A stretch of DNA of 64,000 nt from Cyanidioschyzon merolae. Taxonomy: Eukaryota. A program made the position numbers and the translations under genes. Shown here piece by piece: positions 4,490 to 55,080 of the stretch (its first letter is position 1; every line of letters begins with the position of its first letter). The stretch is from NCBI GenBank assembly GCA_000091205.1, contig AP006486.2; one strand, 5' to 3'. The notes beneath the pieces were generated by a model that worked only from the letters and a program-made list of their open reading frames with translations, did not search any database and was not told the DNA's origin.

Positions 4490-7400
4490 TCGAGAGCGAG
4501 TGCCCTACAAACTATTGCAACCGCAACGCACCGCCTGTCGAGGAATGAGCGCTTTCGTTCAACGCTTCCCGTAACAGCACAGGGGTATGGATCTAGCTGG
4601 TGAAGTCGCACGAAAGCCTGGTTAATGGCGGCTTGTCTAATGGAGCTGAGAGGTATCGGTCGGTGTAGCGAAGAAGTCGCCGTTTGGCTAGCGCTCCTGC
4701 GGACAATCGCAAATTCGCTGTTTCGTGAAAACGATCGTGTGGCATCCCGAGGGATGAAAAGTGGTTGCCTCTGTATGCGGCAACTCGAGTGCCTTGCAGC
4801 TTTTTGCAACCATAGGGACATCAGCAAGCATATGCCGTGCATACCACGCCAGGATAGAATCCCAAGATAAAGAATGTTGTATGGTAGAATCCAAGGGTTC
4901 TGCAGCGAGAACAGCTCTCTATGCATACCAGTGAACTTTCGAAATCTGGTACCCACATGCATTTTTTGTTTCTGTTTGTTGTTCTCGCAAGTATTCAATG
5001 GAAGGAATGTATCCTGCAGCTCGTAGAAAGGCCATGGAGAGCCTTGATGCTGTCGCTGCTCCCCAGAAGAGAACGGTCTTGGTTGTTCAGGTCAATCATT
5101 CTACCGAAAAAACGTGGCTTGACGAGACCACAAGTCTCGAAGTCTCCACTCTGGACGTCGTGAACTCATAACAGAGCTTGCCCAGTCCGATGTACTCGAC
5201 TGCCTCCTTGTCAATCCATTCTTGGCTTCCGTTCTCTACCATATCCTATGAAAGGAGCCGCAGGATTTAGAGATTCCGTACGGTTCGTATGAAGGGTGAT
5301 GAAGAGATTCAGTTGAATAGTGAAAGCGCACGCTTCCACCCGAGAGTATCGCGTACGGATCAACAAGCTATTGATTTCTTACTGAAGCACCAGCACTTTT
5401 CACAGGAGGAACTGGTGTTTGTCCAACTCGACCAGACTCCATCCGAGAGAAACTGGAGTCATGTATACGGATTGTCAGAGAGGGATAAACCAGTTTACGA
5501 ACGGCGAGCAACGGCGAGCACATTGGAAACATGCGCCCTAGCGGCAATCGCGTCTTGTGGTAGACTAGAGATCGCGAAACTGACATGATCGTTGGACATC
5601 TCATTCTTTTCCAGAAGCTTTCTGTGGCTTCTCGTCGGCGCATACATCTGTGGTGCTCGTAGACACCGTCGTTTTCTATCGCTCTTTAGCGGTCATGGAG
5701 TACTCGACTGAGACTGGCCTTCAGCTGATAATTTTCGATCTGGCCTCCTCTGCCCTGCTGAATCGAGTCGAGGGCGTCTTCGCTGGTATCCACCTCCATT
5801 TTGACGCTCACGGATCAATGAACGAGTCTTTCGCATCCGCCATACCGTCCTCCAACCAATCATTTTCAATGTTCACCAGCCCAGACCTGTGTTGCTGCGC
5901 ATTTGCTCATGCACGGGAGGAAGCGCAGGGCCGCGCTTCGGTCTGCAGGCGTGCTTACAACGCGGAAGGTGAGGAAAACTTGCCCGAGGAATAACAGACA
6001 CTTTCATAGAACAGCTTGTTTCGGTCCTACCGTCTAACCAGTGCATATTCATCCCGGGGTAAAGGAGGGATACAGCGTATAGCATCCACATACACACCGT
6101 GCCGGCCCGTAGAGGAGAAGGAGAAGAAACCAATAGACAGAGAAGAGAAGCATCTTCACGAAAGGAAGATACAATGGAGCACAAACGATGAACTCATGAC
6201 GCGGAAAGACCAATCTGCAATCGGTGTCAAGGCCTGCTATCAAAACACAACTTCGGCATGTATCTTCCGAAACGTACGCTGCAGGACGCCAGTAGGATTC
6301 GCGTATCTTCGCTTACCCTGACACGTCTCATCAAGCATCTATTCGTAGCAGCACTGGACGCATGGCTGCCAGCTTTCACAACCCTACCGAGGTTCTCGAT
6401 GAAACCTTCAAGCGACGACTGAAATCCGAGACAGAAAACGCACTACGGCCTGATCAGCGGTTGAGCGCTGTGGAGAGGCGTTTTCCAGAATAGCTTGACG
6501 CGTCACCGCGTCGAGAAGAACCTCGCCTGCACCGGTACCAAGGGGTACCGACGCATTCTCAAGAGCCAAATCCATATGCGGGTCAATATCGAGCGCTTTA
6601 TGCGACATTGGCACACGTGTATTTTGGGCGTTCGGCTCGCTGTAGCCTGGTCTTGCAAACCCCGAAAAGTGCAAACATATGGGAGGGATTCTTGGAGTGT
6701 CGATGGAAACGGGTGACGAGCTTGTGTTCGCGGAAGACATCGAGGCTGTTGCGAGTTCGGAAACGATGTCACAACGAGAACGAGAGTCGCTCCGCATCAC
6801 TCAACTTGATGGTGCTGCTTTCGGCCTCGCTGCGGCGATATGCATATCCAAAGCATTTCTGGAACTCGATAGCCGCTTTGCTAGCGCCCTGTTATGCTAT
6901 CTTTTCCTGAACAGAGTTATACAAAACGAAAGTGACGCTCATCCCGAATCTGAGGCGCCAGCTAGCCGCCTCACGCGTCCTGGCGAAGCGATCCCTATAT
7001 ACTACATCAAGGCTCACTGTATCACTGCAGGCACGTTCGTAACGTGCTGTATGGCCTCTTCGACGAGCTGCGACTGGCCCCTGCAGCCCAGCATCAAGAA
7101 TTCGACGAGCTTCACGAAGGGCATTACGTTCGCTCGCTCGAGGTTTCACGTTTACTCGGAAGAGATGGGAAAAATTTTACAGGGACGATATAGACCAACG
7201 ACATATCAGTCTATGCCTACTTTGTGACACCTATACATGAGTCTAGCAACCAGAATCCTTCGCAACCTTTCAAGGTAGATGCAGAGAATCACTTTCTGGT
7301 GAGCGTGGATCCCACGTCTAGCAAAATCATCGCCGTCGCCGTCCCTCTACATCAAGAGAACGGAGCCAAAGACCTGAAACCGAAACAGATCATATTCCTC

Positions 7401-7600
7401 AACTTTTTTAGAGCTCGGTACCATTCAGTGTCAGACGTGATGGACCCCAAGAAGCAAACGAACATATGGAATGACGGTGACGGGACATGTTTCGATTCTC
7501 TGACCACCGTATCCAGCTGATCGGTGTATGCTTTGTAGGCTTCAGTCCGAGCGCGTATGAACGTCCAAACGGATCGTGCTAACGATATCCTCCAGAAGTA

Positions 7601-7780
7601 TACGAGGCCGCTAGAAGTGTACAACGGATACGGTTGCACACAGGCAAGAGGCATCCATTTTGCAGCGTGTTCATTGAATCGGAAAAAAAGAAGTTACCGA
7701 GGCCGCTAGAAGTGTACAACGGATACGGTTGCACACAGGCAAGAGGCATGCATTGTGCAGCGTGTTTATTGAATCGGATC
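7601..7780. repeat. Diverged tandem duplication, 2 units of about 80-90 bp separated by an A-rich linker
   Basis: The unit gaggccgctagaagtgtacaacggatacggttgcacacaggcaagaggcatSCATTKTGCAGCGTGTTYATTGAATCGGA occurs twice (7601-7688 and 7692-7780) with a few substitutions. Confidence 0.6.
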
Positions 7781-8730
7781 AAGATAGTACTGAAAAGCCT
7801 CTTCGTTAGGTGGTAGCCTACGGCACTGGACGTTCTGTGACGCGCAAGAACTACACTCCCGCTGGTTCAGCGGCAGCGCACAACGAGTACGCGGACCGAT
7901 ACAGCACGTTCGCAGTCAAAGCGTTTTGAATGACATCAGCGCATCGCGAGCACAGGTGCAAGCTGAAACAGTTCACGAAGACGATCGTGAACCAGACCCG
8001 CGTTTCTGAAATGGTGAACAGTCCGATGACCGATCCTCAAGTACCGGAGCAGTCGAAGCTAACAAGCTTGCTTCGGTGCGATTCCACCCGCAAGTGCAGG
8101 CGAAAGCGCACGCTGCACTGACACTTGAACTCTTCGATGAACGGACGGGAAAGTATCGAGCATCGGGAGCATCCGGTGGGTTTGTACACGTCGCACTCGC
8201 GAGTGAACCGCCTAGCGCTCAGAGTTGGCATCGTTTTGCAAAGTCGAGCACGTACGATGAGAGAAACATAAGCAATGGCCAGGAGAAAGGCGAACGGGTA
8301 CCCGTTTGGGGCAACGTTCCGATATGGTTTGTTCCAGGAATCCAATAAGGCTAGAGCGCCGTACATAAACATAAGGCACGGTTTTCCTAGGCAATTTCTG
8401 AATGACAATGTTGTCCCATCCTTCCAAGACGCCAAACCGACTGCACCAGTTGACCCAAAGACAAGTCGCTTGGTTTCGAAAGCCTCCAGAGATTCTGCGG
8501 CTGCTCCTGTGCTTATTACGGTTGTCTAAACAGTATGCCGATGAATCTTTGAATGAAGCGACGACATGACAATGACTAGAATACAGTGCACCGTCGATGG
8601 TGCACTCCAAGCAGTGCCGCTGTGAGCGCAGCGCCATGCCGCGTCCCCATTGGAACAACGATGCATTTTCTGATCAGGTTACACGCTTCGGCTGCATAGA
8701 TGCAGGACATAGACCAAAGATTTTTACAGC

Positions 8731-15334: not shown

Positions 15335-17960
15335 ACAACGAATGCCTTTTACAAGAAAAAACGTTGCTGCCGCAAGTGGTATAGTAGTGGCGACAAACGC
15401 ACCGTAGACAAGGAGTCTTCAGCCGACGTGCAGACGCATCTCAGTCTTTCTCGACCGGCCACCCACTACTTCTTCCAACATTTTTTCATATAGTTCGAGT
15501 TTGAGAGGTTGTCCAACAAAATTCTATCTCGTCCACTCTGGAAGTCTATTCTCCAGCACCGCACGTCTCCTTATATTGATAGCGGCATTAATGTCTCGGT
15601 TCACAAACTCCATCCGTTTCTTGCCATCACTGGATGTACTTAATAATGCGAGTAGTCCACGAACTTTCGCTCTCCTTTCCATTTGCTCCTCCGTCAACGG
15701 TCCGTGCTTTGCTATTTCCTCAGGGCTCCGCTAATACTTTTCCATCTCGACCCTCTGAAGTGTACACCCCAGTTCATGGTGTGTATACGATGTTCGGAAG
15801 TCATCTACGGGTATCGTAACGAAACGCCGTGCGCACTCCTTGCACGTTTTTGTCGTTGGAGCTGGTGTAATGCCTTTTTTCGACGCCCAGCGCCCTGCTC
15901 CATACGCTACTACGAGCCTCTGACTTTCATTCTCCCTCAGGGCGCTCAACTGATTGAAAAAGTTCGAGAACGCCCGCTGCTTCCCACAATACAAATTCAT
16001 ACGCAAACGAGCCCACCGGGGCTTGGTGGATTCTTTCCACAGGGCATCCCAATGAGCAGCGCGAACTTCCATGAACTCCCGAAATGCTTCAAAGTCGGTT
16101 CCTCGGCTCGTCACCTCGCTCAAAGCTTCCAGGTGATCCCTCACTCCTGACTTCTAGGTCTCATTTTGTTTCCTCGCATTCATTATACCGGAATCCCGGT
16201 AGGATCTCGCTCTCGGGAACTTGAAAACTCGCATGTCTTTATGACGTAAATTGTCGTCGACACTATCTTCCGCACGCTTGGGTACAGCGACGGTTATGAT
16301 ATTTGTGTTTCCGGGGTCCGCGCCAACGACAAAGCCGTTATCGTGCACTTTCTGTGTTGCACGATCCACCTCCTTCTTTTCTCGATGCTTCGCCGCGTCA
16401 ACGACAAAGCCGTTATCGTGCACTTCGTGTGTCGCAGGATCCTCCTTCTTCGTACCTTCATCCTTCGCCACGGGCGGAGCTGGACGATCTGTCTTTAAGC
16501 GCCGATAGTGTACAGACATGGCTACTCCATCGTTTTCGATCATCCCAGTGAATACCTTTCGCTTGCTCACTTTCAGACGTTTGAAATCGACGAAATTCTT
16601 CTTCCAGTGCGTCTCCCGGCTTTCGCCGGAGAACTCCTCCCTGCTGACATTGAACTCCGGACTGATCTCCCTCATGATGCCGTAAAGGACGCCTGAATCG
16701 ATAGTCACGAAATGTGACCTGATGTTGCACATTGGAACCACGTTGAAGCGCTTCCCCATTAGGAAAGCCTTCCGCCTCTCCCACTCTTCATTTGTCTCCT
16801 CATTCAGCTTCATTTCCGCCTTGCGTTCCAGCTCTCCGTCCAGCAACACGAAATAGCGCAGGGCGAGGCGATAGTATCTTTCCTTATCTTTTTTCGACTC
16901 TGATAGCTTGTCTGTTGGACTCAGCAGCCCCAGTACCGCACGATGCTCTTCTACAACCGCACGGATGACAGAAGCTTCATTCGTGCTCTCGTTTGACGCC
17001 TTCTCTCCGACGAATTCGATCTCCTGTTCATGCTTGCGATCGTTCGTGACGCCATTGGTAATCGCCCATTTTCCTTTGCGAGCGATGCCAGGGTACAGCG
17101 CAAACACGGCGCGTATCATGAAGCGTTCGAGGTTCATAGTAAAATGGTTCTTCAGGTTCCTGATGTACTTCATCGCTCCGTATGTGTAAATGCACCAGTC
17201 AATTTTGTATCGAGTACCGTCGAAGCTCTAAAAGGGATGTTTTTCGTGGAGGGCATGCACTAGCACATTTTCCCTCGGCGCTTCCGCTGTACCAAGCATC
17301 AGGTGTCGAATAAAGGTCTTATCGAGAAACCCGTCCGGAATCCCGACCGTTTCCATCTGCGCCACGTCGCGATACATCTCCCTCGCCATATGCATCAGTC
17401 CTGAAGACGCCTTGACAATACTCTTGGAGTATGACGCAACACTGTTTTCGATAGCGTCTCGCAGCTTTTCCCTGTACGGATCCTTGATATTTTTAAGAAG
17501 ACAGACTTTCACCACCTTCTTGTCGCACAGTCGTCTTTCGTGCCGCCTTCGACGCAGAGCGTCCCACTTTCAGTCCTTCTTCTCTTCCTTTTCTTCTGGA
17601 CTTGGCACTGTTTTTCTGTTTTTTCTGGCAGCCCGCGACACTGGGCCTCCAGGATCATCGACTTGCTTTTCATAACTTCCTTTTTTTTGTTTTTTTTTGG
17701 AAAACAACGCTCCCTCCAACGCCTCTGATATAAACAGCGAGGAAAACTTGAATAAACCAAACTGAGGGTTGAAATATAACTGAACTGAAAAGTACACTCT
17801 GCTATGACTTTAACGCAAATGCAACTTGTACTTGAGAGCAACACGCTCAAGATCGCGATCCCGTTTCCCTTCAACGACGACATGCGCGTCGTATCTCATG
17901 CCTGCCAGATATGGAGGTGCGCGTATCGACCGCGATGCCCCCTGGCACTGTATGGGCCGA
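15335..17960 (-). mobile_element. Fanzor-like (eukaryotic TnpB/OMEGA-nuclease family) element, copy A, decayed
   Basis: The minus-strand ORF chain 17673->15524 is about 715 codons. It has a KKRKRRR NLS-like N-terminus, a [14 protein letters not shown] RuvC-I-like motif, a TKTCKECARRF...HH..C zinc-ribbon, and an NRDINAAINIRRRAVLEN RuvC-III motif. The 3' terminus lies near 15335 (aacgaatgcc...), and the same terminus is seen in copy B and at 53385. The 5' flank shares similarity with copy 3 out to about 17960. Confidence 0.7.
15524..17673 (-). pseudogene. Fanzor/TnpB-like nuclease gene, copy A, interrupted by in-frame stops
   Basis: An in-frame TAG at 16154-16156 sits where copy B has TGG (Trp). 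An in-frame TAG at 15731-15733 sits where copy 3 has CAG (Gln). An in-frame TGA in the N-terminal region sits where copy 3 has CGA. Otherwise the frame is colinear with copy B. Confidence 0.65.
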
Positions 17961-18839
17961 GGGGCCCACCATGCGCACCCGGTTCAGTCGGATATCCATG
18001 CAGACCCCAACGCACCGCAAGAACACTTGGATGAAATCGATGCAGATTTGGCTGAAGCGACGGTTATGCGAAAACACGCTCGAATCGTTCCCCAGAAATG
18101 TAGAAGGCTCCTACCGCCTCAAGCGAACTGTTCGAACAACCATATGGGAACGTAGACACGGAACCAGTCGCGCCAGTAACGCCCGCCTTGACTCTATACC
18201 GGAACTACAACCTAGCATACACATGCGAGTACTGGTGGGAGGCGCTGGAGTTCCCGGGACTTGCTCGCGGTATCCAGTGGCTCGCCAAAATCCGCGTTGG
18301 TGGTTGCTGACTACCAGCACCTGCGCTAAACCATATAGGAACACTGGAATCGCAGTGGGAATCACACTGTCCCTGCTGTGGAAACGATAAACCCGAGACG
18401 CTGACATATTTAGGCTTACAGTGCGCGCGCTGGAAGCAGGAGCGCAGCGAGCTCCTTGAAGGACGGCATCAGCCGGGTATCACCGTGATAGTCGAAGGCC
18501 GGACACTCACTTTGAGTGCAGCACTGGCAACTGATGGTCCGCTAACGGAGCCTCAGCGCTCATTCGTGGCCAACAGACTCACGTGCTACCTTCCAAGCGG
18601 AAGGTCTAGCGAATCGGACGCGCACACGGGTTTAGTATGCTTTCTGCGCCTATCCACTGTGGTGAGCGTCAAGCACAAACCCGCATTGCCAACCGACAAC
18701 AACGCGTTCCATGCATGATCACGAAGGAGAGAGACGACTCCCAGAATATATCTTAACGGCCAAGTGTCTCCAGCGTGTCGTGCCGCGAAGGCAAGCTTGC
18801 ATCCGCAGACCGTCCGAGCACAAACTGACGACGAGACCC

Positions 18840-18995
18840 GATTCTACGTCGGGTGAAGCACCCCTCGAGCCGACGCCCTCTGTGGTATGGAAAAGCCGTT
18901 CTAGCTCGATAAACTCTCTGCCCCAGCGGTTCAAGCGCAAAGGCGGATATGGAACGGCAGGTATTAGGTACCCACGACAGGACGTATGAGACGAT
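18840..18995 (+). repeat. Fragment of the roughly 650 bp element-R repeat family (see 21741-22400) inside the spacer of the Fanzor inverted repeat
   Basis: It encodes ..PLEPTPSVVWKSRSS.., which matches the SDP.S.EP.LE..PSVV.QSR segment of element R copies at 21840-22037 (minus) and 48692 onward (plus). Confidence 0.5.
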
Positions 18996-19154
18996 CAGTA
19001 TCTCCAAGAAGAAGTATAGGTAATGTAACTTGGAGGGAGGGGGCTTTATGGATATATTACCGCGCGCTGAAGTAAAACGCAAAACAAAAGAGAACGAAAA
19101 GAAAAAGCGCACAATAGGAGAATGCTGGCCCAAGTAAACGTCTTATCAATAGAA

Positions 19155-21705
19155 AAATTGCCGTCGTTGAAGGGAAACGGGATCGCGATCTTGAGCGTGT
19201 TGCTCTCAAGTACAAGTTGCATTTGCGTTAAAGTCATAGCAGAGTGTACTTTTCAGTTCAGTTATATTTCAACCCTCAGTTTGGTTTATTCAAGTTTTCC
19301 TCGCTGTTTATATCAGAGGCGTTGGAGGGAGCGTTGTTTTCCAAAAAAAACAAAAAAAAGGAAGTTATGAAAAGCAAGTCGATGATCCTGGAGGCCCAGT
19401 GTCGCGGGCTGCCAGAAAAAACAGAAAAACAGTGCCAAGTCCAGAAGAAAAGGAAGAGAAGAAGGACTGAAAGTGGGACGCTCTGCGTCGAAGGCGGCAC
19501 GAAAGACGACTGTGCGACAAGAAGGTCGTCAAAGTCTGTCTTCTTAAACATATCAAGGATCCGTACAGGGAAAAGCTGCGAGACGCTATCGAAAACAGTG
19601 TTGCGTCATACTCCAAGAGTATTGTCAAGGCGTCTTCAGGACTGATGCATATGGCGAGGGAGATGTATCGCGACGTGGCGCAGATGGAAACGGTCGGGAT
19701 TCCGGACGGGTTTCTCGATAAGACCTTTATTCGACACCTGATGCTTGGTACAGCGGAAGCGCCGAGGGAAAATGTGCTAGTGCATGCCCTCCACGAAAAA
19801 CATCCCTTTTAGAGCTTCGACGGTACTCGATACAAAATTGACTGGTGCATTTACACATACGGAGCGATGAAGTACATCAGGAACCTGAAGAACCATTTTA
19901 CTATGAACCTCGAACGCTTCATGATACGCGCCGTGTTTGCGCTGTACCCTGGCATCGCTCGCAAAGGAAAATGGGCGATTACCAATGGCGTCACGAACGA
20001 TCGCAAGCATGAACAGGAGATCGAATTCGTCGGAGAGAAGGCGTCAAACGAGAGCACGAATGAAGCTTCTGTCATCCGTGCGGTTGTAGAAGAGCACCGT
20101 GCGGCACTGGGGCTGCTGAGTCCAACAGACAAGATATCAGAGTCGAAAAAAGATAAGGAAAGATACTATCGCCTCGCCCTGCGCTATTTCGTGTTTCTGG
20201 ACGGAGAGCTGGAACGCAAGGCGGAAATGAAGCTGAATGAGGAGACAAATGAGGAGTGGGAGAGGCGGAAGGCTTTCCTAATGGGGAAGCGCTTCAACGT
20301 GGTTCCAATGTGCAACATCAGGTCACATTTCGTGACTATCGATTCAGGCGTCCTTTACGGCATCATGAGGGAGATCAGTCCCGAGTTCCATGTCAGCAGG
20401 GAGGAGTTCTCCGGCGAAAACCGGGAGACGTACTGGAAGAAGAATTTCGTCGATTTCAAACGTCTGAAAGTGAGCAAGCGAAAGGTATTCACTGGGATGA
20501 TCGAAAGCGATGGAGTAGCCATGTCTGTATAGTATCGGCGCTTGAAGACAGATCGTCCAGCTCCGCCCGTGGCGAAGGATGAAGGTACGAAGAAGGAGGA
20601 TCCTGCGACACACGAAGTGCACGATAACGGCTTTGTCGTTGACGCGGCGAAGCATCGAGAAAAGAAGGAGGTGGATCGTGCAACACAGAAAGTGCACGAT
20701 AACGGCTTTGTCGTTGGCGCGGACCCCGGAAACACAAATATCATAACCGTCGCTGTACCCAAGCGTGCGGAAGATAGTGTCGACGACAATTTACGTCATA
20801 AAGACAAGCGTCTGCTGATGTTGTCAAGAGCTAGATATTACCGGGAATCCGGTATAATGAATGCGAGGAAGAAAATCGTTTCATGGAATTCAGGAATGAA
20901 AGATCACCTGGAAGCTTCGAGCGAGGTTACGAGCCGAGGAGCCGACTTTGAAGCATTTCGGGAGTTCATGGAGGCTCGCGCTGCTCATTGGGATGCCCTG
21001 TGGAAAGAATCCACCAAGCCCCGGTGGGCTCGTTTGCGTATGAATTTCTGTTGTGGGAAGCAGCGGGCGTTTTCGAACTTTTTCAATCAGTTGAGCGCCC
21101 GGAGGGAGAATGAAAGTCAGAGGCTCGTAGTAGCATACGGAGCAGGGCGCTGGAAGACCCAAAAGGGACTATGCCAGCTCCAACGACAAAAACGTGCAAG
21201 GAGTGCGCACGGCGTTTCGTTACGATGCCCGTAGATGACTTCCGAACATCGTATACACACCATGGACTGGGGTGTACACTCCAGAGGGTCCAGATGGAAA
21301 AGTATTAGCGGAGCCCTGAGGAAATAGCAAAGCACGGACCTTTGACGGAAGAGCAAATGGAAAGGAGAGCGAAAGTTCGTGGACTACTCGCATTATTAAG
21401 TACATCCAGTGATGGCAAGAAACGGATGGAGTTTGTGAACCGAGACATTAATGCCGCTATCAATATAAGGAGACGTGCGGTGCTGGAGAATAGACTTCCA
21501 GAGTGGACGAGATAGAATTTTGTTGGACAACCTCTCAAACTCGAACTATATGAAAAAATGTTGGAAGAAGTAGTGGGTGGCCGGTCGAGAAAGACTGAGA
21601 TGCGTCTGCACGTCGGCTGAAGACTCCTTGTCTACGGTGCGTTTGTCGCCACTACTATACCACTTGCGGCAGCAACGTTTTTCTTTCGAAAGGCGTTCGC
21701 TAGCA
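19155..21705 (+). mobile_element. Fanzor-like element, copy B; inverted duplicate of copy A with its 5' end truncated at about 19155
   Basis: It is about 97% identical to copy A at the protein level over MKYIRNLKNHF...NRDINAAINIRRRAVLENRLPEWTR. Similarity to copy A stops at ...cccttcaacgacg near 19155, and the 3' terminus lies near 21705. Confidence 0.7.
19367..21515 (+). pseudogene. Fanzor/TnpB-like nuclease gene, copy B, with frameshifts and in-frame stops
   Basis: There is an in-frame TGA at 19468-19470 and a TAG at 20530-20532 where copy A has CAC. A 2 nt deletion near 21165 frameshifts the zinc-ribbon region. The TAG at 21306-21308 is shared with copy A. The RuvC-III motif NRDINAAINI lies at 21440-21470. 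Confidence 0.65.
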
Positions 21706-21740: not shown

Positions 21741-22400
21741 TTTTTTTTCTGATGAAAAAATGGTTAGATTCACTATGGATCCCAGAATTCGGAATGGATA
21801 ATGGCTTTCGGGAAAGCGTCCACGATGAAGCGCCTACCTTCAAGTTCTATCACGCATACTTCCTCTCGGATATACTGGTCGTTTCGTATATTCTATCGTG
21901 CGCCGAGCCTGCCGTGAACACCCGCCGTAGCGCTTATACCACTGAAGCAGATGCCACACGGAGACAGAACGGCTTTGCCATACCACTGAAGGCATCGACT
22001 CGAGGCGTGGTTCCTCCGACGTGGGGTCGGAGTACATAATATATCTGGGAGCCTGTAAGCTGCGCAGACAGACGCACTGCCTGTGGCAGCGCGGAGCGAT
22101 CTACAAGGAGTCCACTGTGACCACGGAGACGCCCAGACGCAGCATCCTGCTCCAAGTCCCCGAATGAAATGCGTTGCGGACGAGTTGTGCAGGTATCGCC
22201 ACAAAACCTGCCATTGGAGGAAGCATGAAGCACTAGCTAGCCCCGAAGACTCGTCCGGCTCGCGGGACCTTCCGCCTAGAAGGTAAAGTTTCGAAGATGC
22301 GGAAACTTTCCCCCTTTTCCATGAGTCATATCAAGGTCGAAAGAAACTGTTATCGAGTTGCTAGTCAGTTGTTAGTTTCTGTTCTTTCGTCTCTAGGAGA
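21741..22400 (-). repeat. Element R, copy i: roughly 650 bp non-coding repeat with a short A-tail (SINE/retroposon-like)
   Basis: It is about 80-85% identical to 27866-28515 and to the reverse complement of 48335-48993. On its own (minus) strand it ends ...ttttttcatcag followed by A9 (the T-run at 21741-21749 on plus). The 5' ends of all three copies coincide, which argues for a discrete unit. No conserved ORF is present. Confidence 0.65.
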
Positions 22401-27865: not shown

Positions 27866-28515
27866 CCTTTTTTTCGATGACGAAACGTTTATATGGACCG
27901 TGGATCCCAGATTGCTGAATCCATACAGGCTTTCGGGAATGTTTCCATTATGCAGGGCAATACTCCCAAGTTCCGTCACGTATACTTCCTTTCGGATATA
28001 CTGGTCGTGTTGTACATGCTATCGTTCACAGAGTACCCGCTGTGAGCGCTCGCCGTAGCGCCTTTACCGCTGGTGCGGATGAAGCGCGGAGACGGAACGG
28101 CGTTGGTATGCCCATAGACATGTAGGCTCGAGGCATGGTGCACCTGATACGGTGTCGGAGTACGTAGTAATTCTGGGAGCCTGCAAACTGCGTAGACAGA
28201 CCTACTGCCTGCGGTACCGGGAGGCGATAAACTAGGAGTCCACCGCGACCGGGGTGATATCCAGATGCAGCTTAACTGCCCCTAGTCCTGGAATAAACTG
28301 CACTGCGGACGAGTTGCTCAGATCTCACTGAGGCACGAGGCACAGTGGGGAGCAAGAAGCGCAAGCGCGGCAAACTCGTCCGGCTCACGGGACCTTCCGC
28401 CTGGAAGGTAAACTAGCGATAATACGGAAACCTTTTCCCCTTTTACCGTCTACGTTAGAGAGGGAAAGAAATCGCTATCTCGTTCCTAGTTCGTGGTTCG
28501 TCTCTGTTCTCTTTT
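27866..28515 (-). repeat. Element R, copy ii (solo copy, not next to a Fanzor gene)
   Basis: It aligns end to end with copies i and iii. The T7 run at 27866-27872 corresponds to an A-tail on the minus strand. Confidence 0.65.
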
Positions 28516-31549: not shown

Positions 31550-32269
31550 AACAAACGACGCCGTACCTCGCTAGATTCTGTGCATGGCGGTGGACCGCAG
31601 CATGCTACTGGTGCCGCGCGGTGCTGGCGAACGCTCCGATGTCGTCGTTAGTCGTTGTCGTTGGAGCAGCAGCTGCGAGGCGCGCAGCGGAAGCAAAACC
31701 CGTGGATGCTTCTTGCCCATTTTACTGGATAAAGCAGGAATAGAAGATCATGCATCGGGCACCGCATGCCCCGAGTTTCTTGTTCGAGTCCCAAAGTCCG
31801 CCGGCACGCTGCGCATGTCCATTGTATTGCGGCACAAGTGAGCTTGCATCCTCATCCACGCCTTGAATCAAACAATGGTTATCATGTTGCAACGGGTTCA
31901 CAACATGCGTATCACGTACACCACCAGTGTCGCAGATTCGAAAAGAGACGAACGGCAAGAGGCGTGCCCGCTTCCGCGACTCCAGTTGCGCACCTATACA
32001 CTGCTGTATAGGAAATGCGGGAATTGTAAAGTATTCTATCCCAGCTGCTGGCTAGCGTCCTCTATCGATCGTGCCAATGTATCGATCTCAGTGTCTGTCC
32101 AGAGACCAGCCAGTTCAGCGGCATCCGCGCTATACCATCGTGCGAGACGCATCGACCGGGATGGATTCAAGCCCGGAGAGCGCACTGGATGCCTAAAAGA
32201 AATCATCGAGTAGACAAATTGAATCGAGGATAGCGGTCTTTGTTCTAACAAAATAAAATGGCGAGAGAA

Positions 32270-33100
32270 CCCGACCTGTACAGAGCAGTCTGCATCCGGG
32301 CCAGAAAAGGCATACGCATCCCAGCCTGCAGTGTCGTGCATTTCCGATAATCCGAATTACACATAGAGCAGTCTGCATCCCGACCAGAAAAGGCATACGC
32401 ATCCCAGCCTGCAGTGTCGTGCATTTCCGATAATCCGAATTACACATAGAGCAGTCTGCATCCGGGCCAGAAAAGGCATACGCATCCCAGCCTGCAGTGT
32501 CGTGCATTTCCGATAATCCGAATTACACATAGAGCAGTCTGCATCCCGACCAGAAAAGGCATACGCATCCCAGCCTGCAGTGTCGTGCATTTCCGATAAT
32601 CCGAATTACACATAGAGCAGTCTGCATCCGGGCCAGAAAAGGCATACGCATCCCAGCCTGCAGTGTCGTGCATTTCCGATAATCCGAATTACACATAGAG
32701 CAGTCTGCATCCCGACCAGAAAAGGCATACGCATCCCAGCCGGCAGTGTCGTGCATTTCCGATAATCCGAATTACACATAGAGCAGTCTGCATCCCGACC
32801 AGAAAAGGCATACGCATCCCAGCCTGCAGTGTCGTGCATTTCCGATAATCCGAATTACACATAGAGCAGTCTGCATCCCGACCAGAAAAGGCATACGCAT
32901 CCCAGCCTGCAGTGTCGTGCATTTCCGATAATCCGAATTACACATAGAGCAGTCTGCATCCGGGCCAGAAAAAGCATACGCATCCCAGCCTGCAGTGTCG
33001 TGCTTTTCCGATAATCCGAATTACACATAGAGCAGTCTGCATCCGGGCCAGAAAAAGCATACACATCCCAGCCTGCAGTGTCGTGCATTTGCAATGGAGT
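32270..33100. repeat. Minisatellite, 83 bp unit x about 10, two alternating unit variants
   Basis: The unit is cacatagagcagtctgcatccSgRccagaaaaggcatacgcatcccagcctgcagtgtcgtgcatttccgataatccgaattaca. Its periodicity shows in the identical 77 aa minus-strand ORFs spaced exactly 83 nt apart from 32357 to 33021. It lies in the intergenic region upstream of Rab7. Confidence 0.9.
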
Positions 33101-33259
33101 CACAGGGGCGCTGCCTATGATAGGGAGTGGGGCGCGTTCGTGGAGCATCCGCGAGGAAATGTTGAGCGCTTCTATTCGCTTTTTTATGGGTGCGCTTCTC
33201 AGGGCCCACCATATCGGACACAATCGTAGAGTGGTGAGGGCCTTTTGGAGTCGTCGTTG

Positions 33260-48334: not shown

Positions 48335-48993
48335 TAGGGTGCTGACAAGCGACAAGCGCGGCATCGACGACTGCGAGAAAGAACTGAAACGAACCACTGA
48401 CTAGCAGCTCGATAACAGTTTCTTTCGACCTTGATAGCAATCGATGAAATCGGGAAAAGTTTCCGAATCTTCGAAAGTTTATCTTCCAGACGGAAGGTCC
48501 AGCGGTCCGGACGAGTCTGCGGGGCTAGTGCTTCATGCTTCCTCCAGTGCAAGGTGCTATGGCGAGACCTGCGTAGCTCGTCTGCAACACAAGCAATCGG
48601 GAAGTAGGGAAAGGAAGCCGCGCCTGGGCGTCGCCCTTGTCGCAGTGGACTCCTGGTAGATCGGTTCGCCCTGGCGCGGGCTCCCAGAACGATGATGTAC
48701 TCCGACCCCGTGTCGGATGAGCCCTGCCTCGAGACGACGCCCTCAGTGGTCTTGCAAAGCCGCTACGTCTCAGTGCAGCATCTGCTTCAGCAGTATATCA
48801 GCGCTACGGAAGGTGCTCGCGGCAGGTACTCGGCGCAGGATAGAACATACGAAACGACCAGTATATCCGAGACCAAGTATGCGTTATGGAACTTGGAGGT
48901 AGATGCCTTATGGCGGACGATTCCCCGGGAGCCATTATCGATTTCGAGTTCTGGGATCCATGGTCAATTGTCCACGGATTGTCATCGAAAAAA
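48335..48993 (+). repeat. Element R, copy iii, plus orientation, with an A6 tail at 48987-48992 pointing toward Fanzor copy 3
   Basis: It aligns over its full length with the reverse complement of 21741-22400 and 27866-28515. It ends ...gtcatcgAAAAAAg. Confidence 0.65.
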
Positions 48994-49136
48994 GAAATCG
49001 ACCGCTGTGATCGAAGCGCTCGGGCCGAGGCGAGGCGCGATCTCGAATGCGGCGCGATCCAAGCGCTATGAGTATATATATAAATTTAGACGGTTGCATC
49101 GCCACCGGCATGGCGCGGTGTGCGCCAAGCAGAGAT

Positions 49137-49248
49137 CCAGTGATAGCTCACTCGCTTCCCATGCGAGGCTACGAGTTGGTAGAGCATTCGGCTGTAGTGG
49201 TACTTTGCATCTACCGAAGGGTCCCTGGTTCGAGTCCGGGTCACTGGA
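49137..49248 (+). tRNA. Probable tRNA-Tyr(GTA) with a 15 nt canonical anticodon-loop intron and an extra 24 nt insertion (intron-like) in the D-arm
   Basis: The 7 bp acceptor stem is perfect: CCAGTGA/TCACTGG. The D-stem is GCTC/GAGC around the D-loop AGTTGGTA, with 24 nt (49150-49173, containing the hairpin CTCGC..GCGAG) inserted after the 5' D-stem strand. The anticodon stem is TTCGG/CCGAA, and the loop CTGTAG|tggtactttgcatct|A matches the eukaryotic tRNA-Tyr loop CUGUAGA split at 37/38. The variable loop is GGGTC and the T-arm is CCTGG-TTCGAGT-CCGGG. The discriminator is A, followed by a T7 run. Confidence 0.55.
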
Positions 49249-49251
49249 AGA

Positions 49252-49258
49252 TTTTTTT
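49252..49258 (+). terminator. Pol III-type oligo-T terminator (T7) immediately 3' of the tRNA
   Basis: The sequence is ttttttt, starting 4 nt after the discriminator base. Confidence 0.4.
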
Positions 49259-49959
49259 CGAAACTTGAGAATCTCGGGATCTGCTCGAAACCACTGCCTA
49301 GGTAAGTCATTTTCTGAATCGGGACTCTGCAGCAACTAGCCGATCCCCGAAAAATTTACAATTCTTGTTCGCAGCCTGCGCAAGGATACTTGCGTCCCGG
49401 CAGACGCTTGTCCCTTCCGCAAGCTCCAACGAGAGTGCCTGGAGGAATCATGTTACAGTCCGTCAAACATTCTAGGATCACCGGGTGCCGGGCATTTGGA
49501 TAGTGCAAGGCCGCTGGATGCGTCTTTGCGAATTCTGTACACTCACAGAATGGCTTCGCGTTTTGTTGATTCGTATCATATCCAGGCGCACAGTACGACA
49601 CATGTGAGGAACGTGGACACAAGGCCGGAACCTGTGGAAAGAACGAATTTCCCGCGACTCCTGGGAGAATCTGCGCGGCATAAGAACAGCTTTGATTTCG
49701 CCGCACCACCAACCAGATGAGGACACACGGAGCAGTTGGCCGGCAGGTTTGTCCCGATCGCCGGATCTTCTTACAATGTAAACTTGGAGACTCGACAAAA
49801 AACCTTGCCCCCATTATGCGCTGCAATATATTAGAACAGGAGCCGTTCGCTAATTGCTCAACCGCGGTCTGTATTCGTTTATCCTGAATAACGATTCATT
49901 GGTTCCGGCACACACCTCGAAAGGAGGCACCGCCGCCTCCAAACACCTCTCGAAAGTTC

Positions 49960-52700
49960 AACGACGTCACCGTTGTACAGTAGTGGCGAGTGACCCGCCC
50001 TAGACAAGAAGTCTCCGACTGCTATGCAGACGCCTCCGCGTCTTTCTCGACCGGCCAACTACTACTGCATCCAACTTTTTCTCATATACTTCGACTTTGA
50101 GAGGCTGTCCAACTATGTTCTCTCTTGTCGACTCTGGAGGTGTTTCCTCCAGCACTGCACATCGCCTTGTATTGATAGCGGCGATAAAGTACCGGCCCAC
50201 AAACTCCATCCGTTTCGTGCCCCCGTTGGTTGTACTTACTAGCGTGAGTAGTCCACGAACTTTCGCTCTCCTTTCCACTTCCTCCTCCGTCAGCGGTCCG
50301 TACTTTGCTATTTCCTCAGGGCTCCTCTGGCAATTTTCCATTTCGACCCTCTGAAGTGTGCACCCTAGCTCGTGTTGTGTGTAGGAGGTTCGGAACAGAT
50401 CTATCGGTTTTGCAACGAAAAGCCTTGCGCACTCCTTGAACACCCTCGTCGTTGGAGCTGGCTTAGTGCCTTTCTTGGGCGCCCAGCGCCCTGCTCTGTA
50501 TGCTGCTACTAGCCTCTGATTTTCACCCTCGTTCAAGGCGCTCAACTGATTGAAAAAATTCGCGAACGCTCGCTACTTACCACAATACAGATTCATTCGC
50601 AAACGAGTCCATCGGGGCTTTATATACTCCTCCCACACCGCATCCCAATGCACAATGCGAACTTCCATGAATATTCCGAAAAGATTCAAAGTCCGCTCCA
50701 CGGCTCGTCACCTTGCTCATAGCTTCCAGGTGCTTCTTCAGTCCAGCATTCATATCTCGATTTTCTTCCACTCATTCAATATACCGGATTCTCGATAGTA
50801 TGTCGCTCTCGAGAACCTCAAAAGGCGCATATCGTTCTGACGAAAGTAACCGTCAGTAACATCTTCCGCGCGCTTGGGTACAGCGATGGTTACGATATTT
50901 GTGTTTCCGGTGTCCCCGCCAACGAAAAAGTCGATATCTTGCACTTTCTGCGTCACAGGATCCACCTCCTTCTTCTCTTCATGCTTCGCCGCGCCAACCA
51001 TAACGTGGTTATCCTGCACTTTCTGTGTGGCAGGATCCGCCTACCTCTCATCTTCATCCTTCACCGCGCCAACGACAAGGTCGTTATCCTGCACGTTCTG
51101 TGTCGCAGGTTCCGCCCCCTTCTCATCTTGATCCTTCACCGCGTCAACAACAAGTTCGTTATTCTCCACCTCCTGCGTTGCAGGATCAGACTCCCCCTTT
51201 TCTTCATCCTTCGTGACGGGCGCAGCCGAGGGAGGGACTGGCCGATCTTTCTTCAACCACCGATAGTGTACAGACATGGCTACTCCATCGGTTTCGATCA
51301 TCCCTGTGAATACCTTTTATTTGCTGACTTTCACACGTTTGAAATCGAAGATATTCTTCCACAAAGGCTCCCGGATTTCACCGGTGAGGTCCTCCCTGTT
51401 AACATTGAACTCCGGACTGATCTCCCTCATGATGCCGTAAAGGACGCCTGAATCGATAGTCACAAAATGTGACTTGATGTTGCTCATTAGAACCACGTTG
51501 AAGCGCTTCCCCATTAGGACAGCCTTCCGTCTCTCCCATTCTTCATTTCTTCCTCAAACAGCTTCATCTCCGCCTTCCGCTCGAGCTCCCGGTCCAGAAA
51601 CACAAAATACCGCATTATGAGATAATAGTATCTTTCCTTATCTTTTTTCGACTCTGATATCATATCTCTTGGATTCGCCAACCACAGTACCGCACGTTGC
51701 TCTTGTCTAGCCGCACGGATCGCAGAAGCTTCGTTCGCGCTCTCGTTTACGCCTTCTCTCTGACAAATTCGACCTCATCTTCACGCTTGCGATCTTTCGT
51801 GATGGCCTTGATAGTCGCCCGTTTTCCATTGCGAGATAGGCCCGGGTAGAGTGCAACCACGGCACGTAACATAAAACGTTCGAGGTTCACTGTCAAATGG
51901 TCCTTCAGATTCGTGGGGTACTTCATGGGCCCATATGAGTGAACATCCCGGTAACCCCAGTATCGAGTACCACTGAAGCTGTAAAAGGGATGTTTTTCGT
52001 GGAGGGCATGCACCCGCTCATTTTCCTTCCGAGCTTCCTCTGTGCCAAGCATCAGCTGACTAACAAAGGTCTTGTCGAAAAAATCTTTCGGAATCTCTAC
52101 CGTTTCCATGTGGGTCACGTCGCGATCCATCTCCCTCGGCAAATGCATCAGTCCTGACAACGCGTTGACAATACTCTTGGAGTAAGAGGCCACATGTTTT
52201 TCGATAGCGTCTCGCAACTTACCCTGTAGGGATCCTTGATATGTCCAAGAAGGAAGGTTTTCACCACCTTCTCGTTGTAAAGTCGACTTTCTTGCCGCCT
52301 TCGATGTAGGGCCTCCTGCTTTCGGTTCTTCAGCTCTTCCTTTTCTTCAGGACTCGGCACTGCTTTTTGTTCTTTTCTGGCAGCCGGCGACCTTGGACCT
52401 CCAGGATCGTGGGCTTGCTTTTTCATAAATTTCCTTTTCTTGTTTTTTAAAGATAACGCTCTTTGAACGCTTCTGTTAGATACTGCGCAAAACACTTGAC
52501 TAGACTTGTTTGAAGCTTGAAACGAAAATGAACAGAAACACTGTACTTTGCTAGGACCTGAACGGAAATTTAACTTTTTTCCAGCTGAACAACACGCTAG
52601 AGATCATAATCACGTTTCCCTTCAACAGCGGCACGCGCGTCGTGTCTCATGTCTGTCTGATCTCCGAGGTGCACTCACCGAGCGCGATGCCTGCACCGCG
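49960..52700 (-). mobile_element. Fanzor-like element, copy 3 (diverged family member, decayed)
   Basis: The minus-strand ORF chain 52426->50000 is colinear with copies A and B at about 60-70% identity. It contains [71 protein letters not shown]...HELGCTLQRVEME and KRMEFVGRYFIAAINTRR. Its 3' terminal sequence (49960-50030) is related to the copy A/B termini, and its 5' flank (about 52600-52700) resembles the copy A 5' flank. Confidence 0.65.
50000..52426 (-). pseudogene. Fanzor/TnpB-like nuclease gene, copy 3, with frame breaks, a lost RuvC-III Asp and an internal tandem repeat expansion
   Basis: The conserved NRDINAAINI is replaced by GRYFIAAINT, so the catalytic Asp is lost. Several frame breaks lie between 50545 and 52150. 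Segment 50930-51240 holds about 4 tandem ~75 nt units encoding (D/E)PATQ.V.DN.LVV.A.K, against 2 units in copies A and B. Confidence 0.6.
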
Positions 52701-53384
52701 CGAGACGCCTCAGCGATCGATGAAGGACACGTGTTCGACAACCCGCCTTGGCACATGCTTGTACGCATCGCACTGCAGCTGAAATAAACTATCGTAGATC
52801 GGAAATTGACGTAGAACGATCTCCTGCTATAGACTCTGTCGCTGGTGCCGACGCTACTGCCCATCGCAGTACCGCCCCGACATACAAGGGGCTGTTGGGG
52901 CCTGACACAAAACCCCTCGACGCTTCTATCAAAAGCGTAGCGTTCTCTGCAGCTTCCGCTTGTGTGGATGAGTTGTGCATCAATCTTCTCGTTAGGAATT
53001 TCATTTGTTTTATTGATCGTAACCAAACAAGGTAAGGTAGTATTCCTGGACTCGTATATGCGTCTGTTCGTGATGCTTGTTATGCATGCCGCACGGACGC
53101 TGCAATGAGGAAATGACCTGAATTGTGCTTCGATCTTGCGTCATACGCTGGTACTGATGGCAGTTCAAGCCATTTGCATGCTATCGTCTTTGTCCAAGTT
53201 ATGGTGCTTGCTACTCTCCCGGATCCGGTGATCTTGGTAGAGGCATCGCATACATAGAGTGTCTATACTTAGCATTCCATTTGACCGACGCATCCGCCAA
53301 AAGCACATACTGTATTCTGATCTACTCTATAAGATTAGTTTCAAGAGCCTAACCCGAACATCGAGCCCGGAAGCGACAAAGCGA

Positions 53385-53490
53385 ACAACGAATGCCTTTG
53401 AGAAAAACGCTGCCGCCCGCGGTGTACAATAGTGCCGAATGACCTGCCCTAGACATGAAGTCTCCAACTGACGTGCAGACGTTTGCAAAA
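53385..53490. repeat. Solo fragment of a Fanzor-element 3' terminus
   Basis: The fragment aacgaatgcctttgagaaaaacgctgccgc...gtgtacaatagtgccgaatgacctgccctagacatgaagtctccaactgacgtgcagacg matches the terminal about 100 nt of copy A (15337-15440) and of copy 3 (49965-50030). No adjacent ORF is present. Confidence 0.5.
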
Positions 53491-54024
53491 AATACAGAGC
53501 ACCGTAGGAAATTTCCTTATGCCTCCTCTACGGTATTCGTCGGAGAGCTGTGGTGAAGTCCATTTACGATCGTTGTGATTTCTGAGCGCAGCACTGCGGA
53601 ACCCTTGGCACTACGTACTGGTGAAGTTGTTGTTCGAAATGGTCTGAGTTCTGCCTAGTTTCTGAAAAGGCATTGAGCGCTTGTGCTAGTTGCGCTGAAC
53701 GCTAGACAATCTACGGGAGATTTAGCTCGGACTCTGGACAATTGACGGGCGATCACTCGTGCCGCTACGCAAAAGAGGTTTTTGACTGGATACGCACACT
53801 TACGCGATCGATTCTAGCCGATGACGTGATCGGCAGCTTTCGCACCGGAGACGACCTAACCCGAGAAAGTACAAGGCATGTTTGTCTCTGATCCGCTGTA
53901 CCGGGGCTAAAGAGTAGTTCGCTCACCTGCTGTAAGTAGAGCACCGTTTCCGCTGGGTACCGAACATGACAGGTGCTTCACAGCTGGACATCGTCACCAC
54001 TGCCAGCGTCCGCTTCCTTTGGTA

Positions 54025-55080
54025 ATGCAGCGTTCGCCTGTAGCGCGCCGGCATCGTATGCTGCATCTTCGTATGGGCCCGAAACAGTCGCAGATCGCCG
54101 TGGTCACTGGCGCGTCCTCTGGGGTCGGTCTGTATGCAGCTCACGCTCTGATCAACAAGGGCAACTGGCACATCGTCATGGCATGTCGTGACGTCGACCG
54201 GGCGGAGCGCGCAGCAAACAGCGTAAACCTTCCAAAGGACGCCTATACAGTGCTGCATTGTGATCTGGCTGATTTCGCCTCTGTACTAAAGTTTGTGAAA
54301 GGGCTATCGAGTGTGGCGCGCGTCGATCACCTGGATGCCCTGATCTGCAATGCCGCAATCTGGCATCCGCGGGTCAAGAAACCGCGTTTCACGGTGGACG
54401 GCATCGAGAAAACCATGCAGGTATGCCATCTGAGCCATTTGCTTCTATGTCGGGAGCTGTTGCCGAAGCTGAAAATATCGCGCGGGCGCATTGTGTTTCT
54501 GACGACTCAGACACACTCGCCGGATTCGCTGCCGGGAAAGATCCCCCCGCAGGCTCGTCTCGGGGATTTATCTGGTCTAGCCGCGGGGCTTGATCCGCAG
54601 ACGACGGACATGGTAGAAAGTGGCCCGTTTCAGCCCACAAAAGCTTTCAAAGACGCCAAAGCCGAGAACGTGTTGACAATGAAGGCGCTCAGTGATCGAT
54701 ACGGCCGCGACGGGGTGACCTCTGTGGCGATTTTCCCGGGATGTGTCGCCGAAAGCAACCTCTTCCGCGAAAAGCGTGGCTGGTTCCGGTACGTATTCTT
54801 CCCGATTCTTCAGAAGTATATCACTCGGCAATACGTTCCGAATGATGAGGCCGGCCGCCGTGTAGCCGAAGTGGCGACCCAGGGACAGTTCTCGGACGCG
54901 GGCTCGTATTGTCAGTGGCGTGGCAAATATACGGAAGGTCGAGAGAAGACGAAATCGCAGGTTATTGAACCAACGTACGAAATCGACAAGGCAGATCAGC
55001 TATACGAACTGAGTCTTGATCTGATCGACCAGGCGTTACGGAGGCGAGGCCTCAAGTCGACTATCTTGGCCCCTGTCTAA
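54025..55080 (+). CDS. POR: Light-dependent NADPH:protochlorophyllide oxidoreductase (SDR family)
   Basis: The ATG is at 54025 (the track start at 54019 is TTG). VVTGASSGVGLYAAHAL...WHIVMACRD..RAERAA.S...P..YTVLHCDLA....V.KFV, IPPQARLGDLSGLAAGL and FPGCVAESNLFREKRGWFRYVFFPILQKYITRQYVPNDEAGRRVAEV closely match plant and algal LPOR (IITGASSGLGL...WHVIMACRDFLKAERAAKS...[80 protein letters not shown]). It stops at TAA. The N-terminal presequence looks short. Confidence 0.85.
   Translation: MQRSPVARRHRMLHLRMGPKQSQIAVVTGASSGVGLYAAHALINKGNWHIVMACRDVDRAERAANSVNLPKDAYTVLHCDLADFASVLKFVKGLSSVARVDHLDALICNAAIWHPRVKKPRFTVDGIEKTMQVCHLSHLLLCRELLPKLKISRGRIVFLTTQTHSPDSLPGKIPPQARLGDLSGLAAGLDPQTTDMVESGPFQPTKAFKDAKAENVLTMKALSDRYGRDGVTSVAIFPGCVAESNLFREKRGWFRYVFFPILQKYITRQYVPNDEAGRRVAEVATQGQFSDAGSYCQWRGKYTEGREKTKSQVIEPTYEIDKADQLYELSLDLIDQALRRRGLKSTILAPV

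Follow-up and report, generated by a model that had tools for sequence, protein, structure and literature searches.

The 64,000-nucleotide (nt) stretch of DNA analysed here, hereafter the window, belongs to contig AP006486.2 of the alga Cyanidioschyzon merolae, and four of its open reading frames (ORFs) are identical to C. merolae 10D proteins (BAM79229, BAM79230, BAM79233 and BAM79234). It contains three copies of a repeated coding element, named copy A, copy B and copy 3, the last of which is the subject of this report. We propose, with a probability of about 0.9, that copy 3 (49946-52690, probably extending to ~53294) is a decayed copy of CMe-1A, a Fanzor1 element that was published for this genome in 2013. 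Related loci were drawn from Cyanidiales-type hot-spring metagenomes, where 80 of 318 related stretches were kept; they are designated by the letter L and a number. The features of the window that bear on the element, with those of copy 3 and its surroundings given first, are as follows.

49946-52690, minus strand: core of copy 3, made up of a 5' leader, a decayed Fanzor1 ORF and a 3' terminal module; ~80% nucleotide identity to copies A and B
50000-52426, minus strand: decayed Fanzor1 reading frame, 808 codons when frame-corrected, with 8 lesions; ATG at 52426-52424, terminal stop at 50002-50000
51317-51319, minus strand: premature stop, VSK-stop-KVF
50912-51211, minus strand: four tandem 75-nt units; unit 3 carries a TAG and the last unit contains the RuvC-I beta-strand
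51041-51043, minus strand: premature TAG in repeat unit 3, DEDER-stop-ADP
50897-50920, minus strand: RuvC-I, GGDTGNTN, catalytic Asp kept; family GADPGNTN
50673-50752, minus strand: compensating 1-nt deletion and 1-nt insertion
50573-50575, minus strand: premature TAG, CGK-stop-RAF; CAG in copy A
50384-50404, minus strand: RuvC-II, IDLFRTS, Glu to Leu; family VDEFRT; syntenic orthologs keep the Glu
50168-50197, minus strand: RuvC-III, GRYFIAAINT, Asp to Tyr; family NRDFNAAINI; L064, L065 and L023 keep NRDF
49946-50050, minus strand: 3' terminal module, with three small hairpins up to the element boundary; terminal hairpin degraded in copy 3
52691-53294, minus strand: subfamily-specific 5' extension of copy 3, outer limit approximate, without counterpart in A, B and most loci
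53385-53481, minus strand: solo copy of the ~100-nt 3' module, ~1 kb 5' of the ATG of copy 3 and in the same orientation
48377-48993, minus strand: ~640-bp repeat, 950 bp downstream of copy 3
15345-19157, minus strand: copy A, consisting of a Fanzor core (15345-17949) and a 1.2-kb 5' region in common with L001
19159-21694, plus strand: copy B, 97% identical to A and head-to-head with it, with five in-frame stops in common

The copies were compared by repeat finding over the whole window, by a three-way MAFFT alignment and by translation in a common frame. Repeat finding located A at ~15348-17900 (minus strand), B at 19159-21691 (plus strand) and copy 3 at 49972-52661 (minus strand), and both it and the alignment show the three to be colinear. 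In the alignment the 3' end common to all three copies falls at position 15345 in A, 21694 in B and 49946 in copy 3, and the 5' end common to A and copy 3 at ~17949 and 52700, respectively. Nucleotide identity is 97.0% between A and B, 80.4% between A and copy 3, and 80.0% between B and copy 3, while the protein identity of copy 3 to A and B ranges from 61.5 to 72.7% across tblastn segments. A first-pass annotation, made from the sequence alone, had described copy 3 as colinear with A and B at 60-70% identity; the colinearity stands, and the figure is correct for protein but not for nucleotides (80%).

Copy 3 is a pseudogene carrying eight disabling lesions, and is a dead member of the Fanzor1 family by descent. 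Its frame is broken by four 1-nt deletions (~52222, ~51749, ~51549 and ~50752) and one 1-nt insertion (~50673), of which the last deletion and the insertion compensate each other, leaving the 79 nt between them out of frame. Three premature stops are found at 51319-51317, 51043-51041 and 50575-50573, and the longest open piece that remains is 190 aa. The catalytic residues have suffered as well: the RuvC-II Glu is lost (IDLFRTS at 50404-50384, as compared with VDDF in A and B and VDEF in the family), the RuvC-III Asp is replaced by Tyr (50197-50168), and only the RuvC-I Asp (GGDTGNTN) survives of the Asp-Glu-Asp triad. The common-frame translation gives GRYFIAAINT for RuvC-III in copy 3 and NRDINAAINI in A and B, exactly as the first-pass annotation had read these motifs, and its claim that a catalytic Asp was lost is borne out by the wider family, in whose alignment this residue is present in at least 90% of members. 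A mutational process resembling repeat-induced point mutation was considered as the source of the stops and rejected, since the transition/transversion ratio is only 1.1-1.2 and transversions account for two of the differences at stops between copy 3 and A/B.

At five of the stops of A and B copy 3 has a sense codon: CGA at the TGA of A17572-17570, TAC at the TAG of A17230-17228, CAG at the TAG of A15733-15731 and B21306-21308, GAG at the TAG of A15526-15524, and CGG at the TGA of A15421-15419. The earlier claim that copy 3 reads through the stops of the other two copies is thus sound at these sites, but it fails at a stop found only in A (16156-16154), where copy 3 has a frameshift and no clean read-through. 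The suggestion that the ancestral ORF could be recovered by combining the copies proved right, since the three copies taken together yield an uninterrupted ORF of 756 aa. Its product is 68% identical to an intact database protein of 752 aa, with 92% of the length aligned.

Copies A and B are inverted relative to each other and meet head-to-head at 19157/19159. Since they are 97% identical and have five in-frame stops in common, their duplication postdates the death of the copy. The 77 differences between them are clustered, with a ratio of nonsynonymous to synonymous substitution rates (dN/dS) of 0.40, and look like the product of ectopic gene conversion from other family members rather than of point decay. 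The extra 1.2-kb 5' region of copy A (17951-19157) is 86% identical to L001 8403-9600, which lies upstream of an intact relative and holds an opposite-strand ORF of 255 aa with no Pfam match.

The assignment of the family to Fanzor1 required distant relatives. Searches of Pfam and the Protein Data Bank (PDB) with single sequences or with a shallow profile of near-identical proteins gave no significant match; when the reconstructed protein, close relatives and the frame-corrected copy 3 were scanned directly against Pfam, only PF07282 appeared, below threshold, and the precomputed label on relatives is a weak DUF8286. Exhaustive profile searching yielded a family of 2,584 cluster representatives, and 39 diverse relatives were used for the family alignment. 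In this alignment the RuvC-I Asp (D484) and the RuvC-II Glu (E656) are invariant and the RuvC-III Asp (D725) occurs in at least 90% of sequences, the triad motifs being DPG, DEFRT and NRDxNAAxNI. The corresponding profile matched the Fanzor proteins PpFz1 of Parasitella (9cf0; E-value=1.6e-23), SpuFz of Spizellomyces (8gkh; E-value=2.6e-17) and GtFz1 of Guillardia (9cer; E-value=1e-10), and no PDB entry other than those of Fanzor fell under E=1.

For structural comparison the intact relative P0001, which is 68% identical to the reconstructed ORF, was modelled in place of copy 3 itself. The AlphaFold2 model, built from a deeper alignment, has a mean predicted local distance difference test score (pLDDT) of 80.5 and a predicted template-modelling score of 0.78. 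When it was compared with the PDB using Foldseek, only seven entries were recovered at E-values of 0.001 or lower (1e-16 to 1e-13), all of them Fanzor1; the target-normalised template-modelling (TM) score reached 0.71, with SpuFz at 0.69-0.71 (E-value=1e-16), and Cas12 entries were far behind (E-value>5e-3). The profile matches of the diverse relatives and the fold of P0001 together support the label 'Fanzor-like' that copy 3 had been given.

The solved Fanzor1 proteins available for comparison are those of Spizellomyces punctatus (SpuFz; 8GKH, 9CEU-9CEZ), Parasitella parasitica (PpFz; 9CF0-3) and Guillardia theta (GtFz; 9CER). The CMe-1A lineage resembles them in profile-level homology over the WED/REC-like region and RuvC, in overall fold, and in having Asp-Glu-Asp in the same motifs. 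It differs from them in that sequence identity is only 12-15%, in the predicted disordered, repeat-containing linker before RuvC-I, and in the zinc ribbon, for which the canonical CxxC...CxxxxC pattern is lacking and RGLLALVST stands where relatives have RGLLWC; copy 3 is in addition broken, with two catalytic residues gone. Between RuvC-II and RuvC-III the CMe-1A proteins possess two His and two Cys (THHELGC...EKC) without canonical Cys pairs. PF07282 matches them weakly (E-values of 0.12-0.23), and reaches an E-value of 0.01 or lower in seven of the 39 wider relatives.

A fourth and far more diverged Fanzor1-like relic lies on the plus strand at 6679-8148, and shows 27-28% protein identity to residues 329-702 of the reconstructed protein. 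It includes a RuvC-I-like motif (VSVDPTSSKI) in the ORF at 7224-7520 and a 95-nt tandem duplication at 7594-7778. Only one Fanzor1 family, CMe-1A, has been described in this alga (Bao and Jurka 2013; PMC3627910).

CMe-1A was reported to be present in C. merolae in ~150 copies which are ~80% identical to the consensus (Bao and Jurka 2013, Mobile DNA 4:12; PMC3627910). The consensus is ~3 kb long and was assigned to an unknown transposon class, with no terminal inverted repeats and with target-site duplications undetermined; its 5' 635 bp are 95% identical to a separate repeat, TE-N2_CMe, and some copies still code for an intact protein (PMC3627910). The elements described here agree with this account in the organism, the type of protein, the ~80% identity between copies (three in 64 kb) and the prevalence of dead copies over a few intact ones. 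They agree as well in length, with a 2.75-kb core and a 0.4-0.65-kb 5' module against ~3 kb, and in the companion repeat of 635-640 bp that forms the 5' part of many copies. No essential feature sets copy 3 apart from CMe-1A; its 5' module is different from the 640-bp repeat. No terminal inverted repeats joining the ends of 49900-53520 were detected, and no target-site duplications were found. The word 'tandem' does not occur in the text of the CMe-1A paper, and the 75-nt coding minisatellite considered below is not mentioned there (PMC3627910).

The 3' boundary of the element is sharp, lying at ~49939-49975 in copy 3, and is common to dozens of loci. At the 5' side, most of the 80 metagenome loci, and L001 with them, are homologous to copy 3 only from ~52688-52691. 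A subset of loci continues further, namely to 53128 in L044, L046, L059 and L060, to 53254 in L006 and L063, and to 53294 in L055 and L056, which places copy 3 in a subfamily distinguished by a separate 5' module. Identity over this extension is 76-82% in these loci, for which no flank synteny to the window was detected. The ~640-bp repeat found downstream of copy 3 is probably TE-N2_CMe-like, and at least 15 metagenome loci have it immediately 5' of their Fanzor core. Two further copies of it are present on the plus strand of the window, at 21742-22388, just 3' of copy B, and at 27868-28510; the three are 66-77% identical to each other. Among the related loci there are few intact ORFs and many broken ones, L007 and L018 being intact.

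Three of the related loci (L064, L065 and L080) share 5' synteny with the window, with homology that extends from the element through a protochlorophyllide-reductase-like (POR-like) gene at 54019-55080; L023, which ends at 53850 and thus short of this gene, is probably syntenic too. The POR-like coding sequence of L064, L065 and L080 is 91-93% identical to that of the window, their intergenic DNA 73-75% and their Fanzor ORF 80.5%. The dN/dS values are 0.43-0.50 for copy 3 against its syntenic orthologs, and 0.40-0.46 among A, B, copy 3 and the intact relative L001. The syntenic orthologs are dead as well, through different lesions. They have kept the RuvC-II Glu (IDEF, VDEF and VNEF), and their RuvC-III reads NRDF in L064, L065 and L023 and NRVF in L080, from which it follows that the catalytic losses of copy 3 were private, late events. 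The first-pass view that the family diversified before its copies decayed fits these data, since dN/dS is 0.40-0.46 and almost all disabling lesions are private to one copy. Synteny breaks off precisely where the element ends on its 3' side (49939-49975). A search of the syntenic loci for an empty site or a common 3' flank found neither: L064/L065, L080/L048 and the window each have a 3' flank unrelated to those of the others, and 49016-49940 has no match in any of the 80 fetched loci.

The last ~100 nt of the element are conserved and can be folded into three small hairpins. Under this three-hairpin model 78% of the sequence-by-pair cells are paired, as compared with 36-53% when the partners are slid; one hairpin pair is GC in 15 sequences and CG in 13, and none of 500 shuffles reached the observed covariation score. 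The terminal hairpin has a z-score below -2 in 18 of 43 distinct ends and exists in at least two sequence versions, both well paired, while in copies 3 and A it is degraded (z ~0). Over the full 322-column 3' alignment RNAalifold gave a weak consensus (-10 kcal/mol); the homology-based alignment sets the two terminal-hairpin versions in different registers. An Rfam scan of the whole window at gathering thresholds produced no match. We regard the module, which finishes where the element does, as a candidate omega-RNA scaffold, by analogy with TnpB and with solved Fanzor complexes, or as a candidate transposon end.

In bacterial TnpB elements (IS200/IS605) the nuclease gene occupies one side of the element, a structured segment coding for the omega RNA overlaps the gene at its 3' end and reaches no further than the boundary of the element, and short non-autonomous derivatives (palindrome-associated transposable elements, PATEs) share one element end. 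The conserved structured 3' module of CMe-1A and the solo copy of it at 53385-53481 would resemble this arrangement, and the likeness may go no deeper than that. Unlike IS200/IS605, CMe-1A resides in a eukaryotic host and has no associated TnpA-type transposase; its companion repeat TE-N2_CMe has the 5' part of the element and not the 3' part. The solo module is kept at the syntenic loci L023, L064, L065 and L080, and is absent from the loci which have the 5' module without flank synteny. It was considered as a terminal direct repeat of the subfamily, and this was rejected since only the syntenic loci possess it; it may be what is left of an older copy nearby.

The region before RuvC-I contains a tandem repeat. 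Tandem Repeats Finder reported 50917-51212 with a period of 75, 3.9 copies, 79% matches, no indels and a score of 333, which in codon register corresponds to four 25-aa units at 51211-50912; A and B have two units. In all three copies the last unit continues into the RuvC-I strand. Among close relatives the linker before RuvC-I is 1, 2, 3, 4, 5 or 6 units long, and at the syntenic locus alone there are four units in the window, two in L064, three in L065, one in L080 and five in L023. L064 and L065 differ by one unit, with flanks that are 99.5% identical. The units of one copy are as diverged from each other (69-85%) as they are from those of other copies, and a weak correspondence by position is confined to the first and last units. 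In the P0001 model the array (residues 374-470) follows the WED-like strands and precedes the first RuvC strand, and is the only long low-confidence segment (pLDDT of 30-35). We therefore interpret the repeat as a 75-nt coding minisatellite in a linker that is predicted to be disordered, with four units as one state among 1-6. The number of units most likely drifts by slippage or unequal exchange, as its variation suggests. The annotation had spoken of an expansion to about four units from the two of A and B; the counts agree, but the data show no direction, with 1-6 units among relatives and 1-5 at the orthologous locus, and it is just as possible that A and B reached two units by contraction.

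That the four-unit array is an adaptive, lineage-specific expansion which lengthens a functional linker before RuvC-I is improbable. The units are in frame at 75 nt and without indels, and multi-unit arrays occur in intact or nearly intact relatives (four units in P0001, a linker of four-unit length in L007), from which it can be concluded that long arrays are tolerated in coding copies. The number, however, ranges from one to five among dead copies at a single syntenic locus and differs between near-identical strains, it bears no visible relation to the intactness of the ORF, one unit of copy 3 contains a stop, and the region is predicted to be disordered. We consider it barely credible that copy 3 is still a working gene whose lesions are overcome through introns, RNA editing, programmed frameshifting or a variant code, and which produces a nuclease-dead, guide-RNA-binding Fanzor. 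Such a gene would accord with a dN/dS below 1, with the retained RuvC-I Asp and with the five frameshifts, four deletions and one insertion, which add up to a multiple of three. Yet a variant code is rejected: the premature stops of copy 3 mix TAA and TAG, and no single reassignment fits the stops of A and B, to which Arg, Tyr, Gln and Glu codons correspond in copy 3. The 1-nt indels are not introns, since A and the intact L001 align base for base at these sites, and host genes nearby are long uninterrupted ORFs in the standard code, identical to deposited proteins. The syntenic orthologs carry different lesions, and in copy 3 the terminal hairpin has degraded along with the ORF.

It is very improbable, too, that the copies are segmental duplications of host DNA and copy 3 a duplicated host-derived gene rather than a mobile element. 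This would account for the failure to find target-site duplications or inverted ends, and A and B do represent a local inverted duplication made after death. It is difficult to reconcile with the 318 related stretches in hot-spring metagenomes, with the lack of common flanks among the 80 loci kept, with a sharp 3' boundary common to dozens of loci and interchangeable 5' modules, or with the ~150 copies reported in a 16.5-Mb genome (PMC3627910). A decayed CMe-1A copy remains our interpretation. A bolder extension of it is that individual CMe-1A copies may be kept in place under selection long after insertion, through a role beyond the transposition burst (such as guide-directed homing or maintenance, or partial domestication), with a fast-changing linker that active enzymes would tolerate and a 3' module, solo copies included, that would be the omega RNA. 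The dN/dS of ~0.45 among orthologs and the better conservation of the ORF than of its flanks are the grounds for this idea, which we consider doubtful.

Several points weigh against parts of our interpretation. Identity with CMe-1A was judged only by the organism, the type of protein, the divergence between copies, and the length and architecture of the element. Synteny is confined to the 5' side. The 1-nt deletion at ~51549 may be common to L080 and L023, in which case death could predate part of the lineage split. The dN/dS values below 1 could derive in part from gene conversion by intact paralogs instead of selection in place, since A and B give 0.40 despite their stops in common. The hairpins might just as well act as DNA signals at the end of the transposon, and the sequences from which their model was built are also those on which the pairs were counted, which favours the model. 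Finally, the collapse of repeats in metagenome assembly could distort the unit counts.

From these data the following history may be outlined. Active members of the family would encode a TnpB-like Fanzor1 of ~750 aa with a split RuvC nuclease, which by homology to SpuFz, PpFz and GtFz is predicted to be an RNA-guided DNA endonuclease; its guide omega RNA would come from the structured 3' end of the element. Copy 3 inserted beside the POR-like gene before the lineage of 10D split from related hot-spring lineages, as the synteny shows. It was probably under partial purifying selection for a time, to judge from its dN/dS and from conservation above that of the flanks. The lineages then seem to have decayed independently, and copy 3 died, as is shown by its eight lesions, its two lost catalytic residues and its degraded hairpin. 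It has no function today.

As one fossil among the ~150 copies of an already published element, copy 3 matters little in itself, and the new points are minor: retention at a syntenic locus with a dN/dS of ~0.45, and a structured 3' terminal module. Some side results could be of modest use for Fanzor biology in a very small and well-assembled algal genome. The reconstructed 756-aa ORF and the intact relatives P0001, L007 and L018 are candidates for activity in a zinc-ribbon-poor Fanzor1 lineage, and the defined 3' boundary with its structured module provides a candidate omega RNA. The syntenic copies in related hot-spring lineages permit insertion and decay to be dated. The variable 25-aa repeat illustrates that differences in unit number between copies need not imply functional innovation.

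Elsewhere in the window, a tandem array with a period of 83 nt occupies 32199-33162 and comprises at least nine overlapping copies at 97-100% identity.

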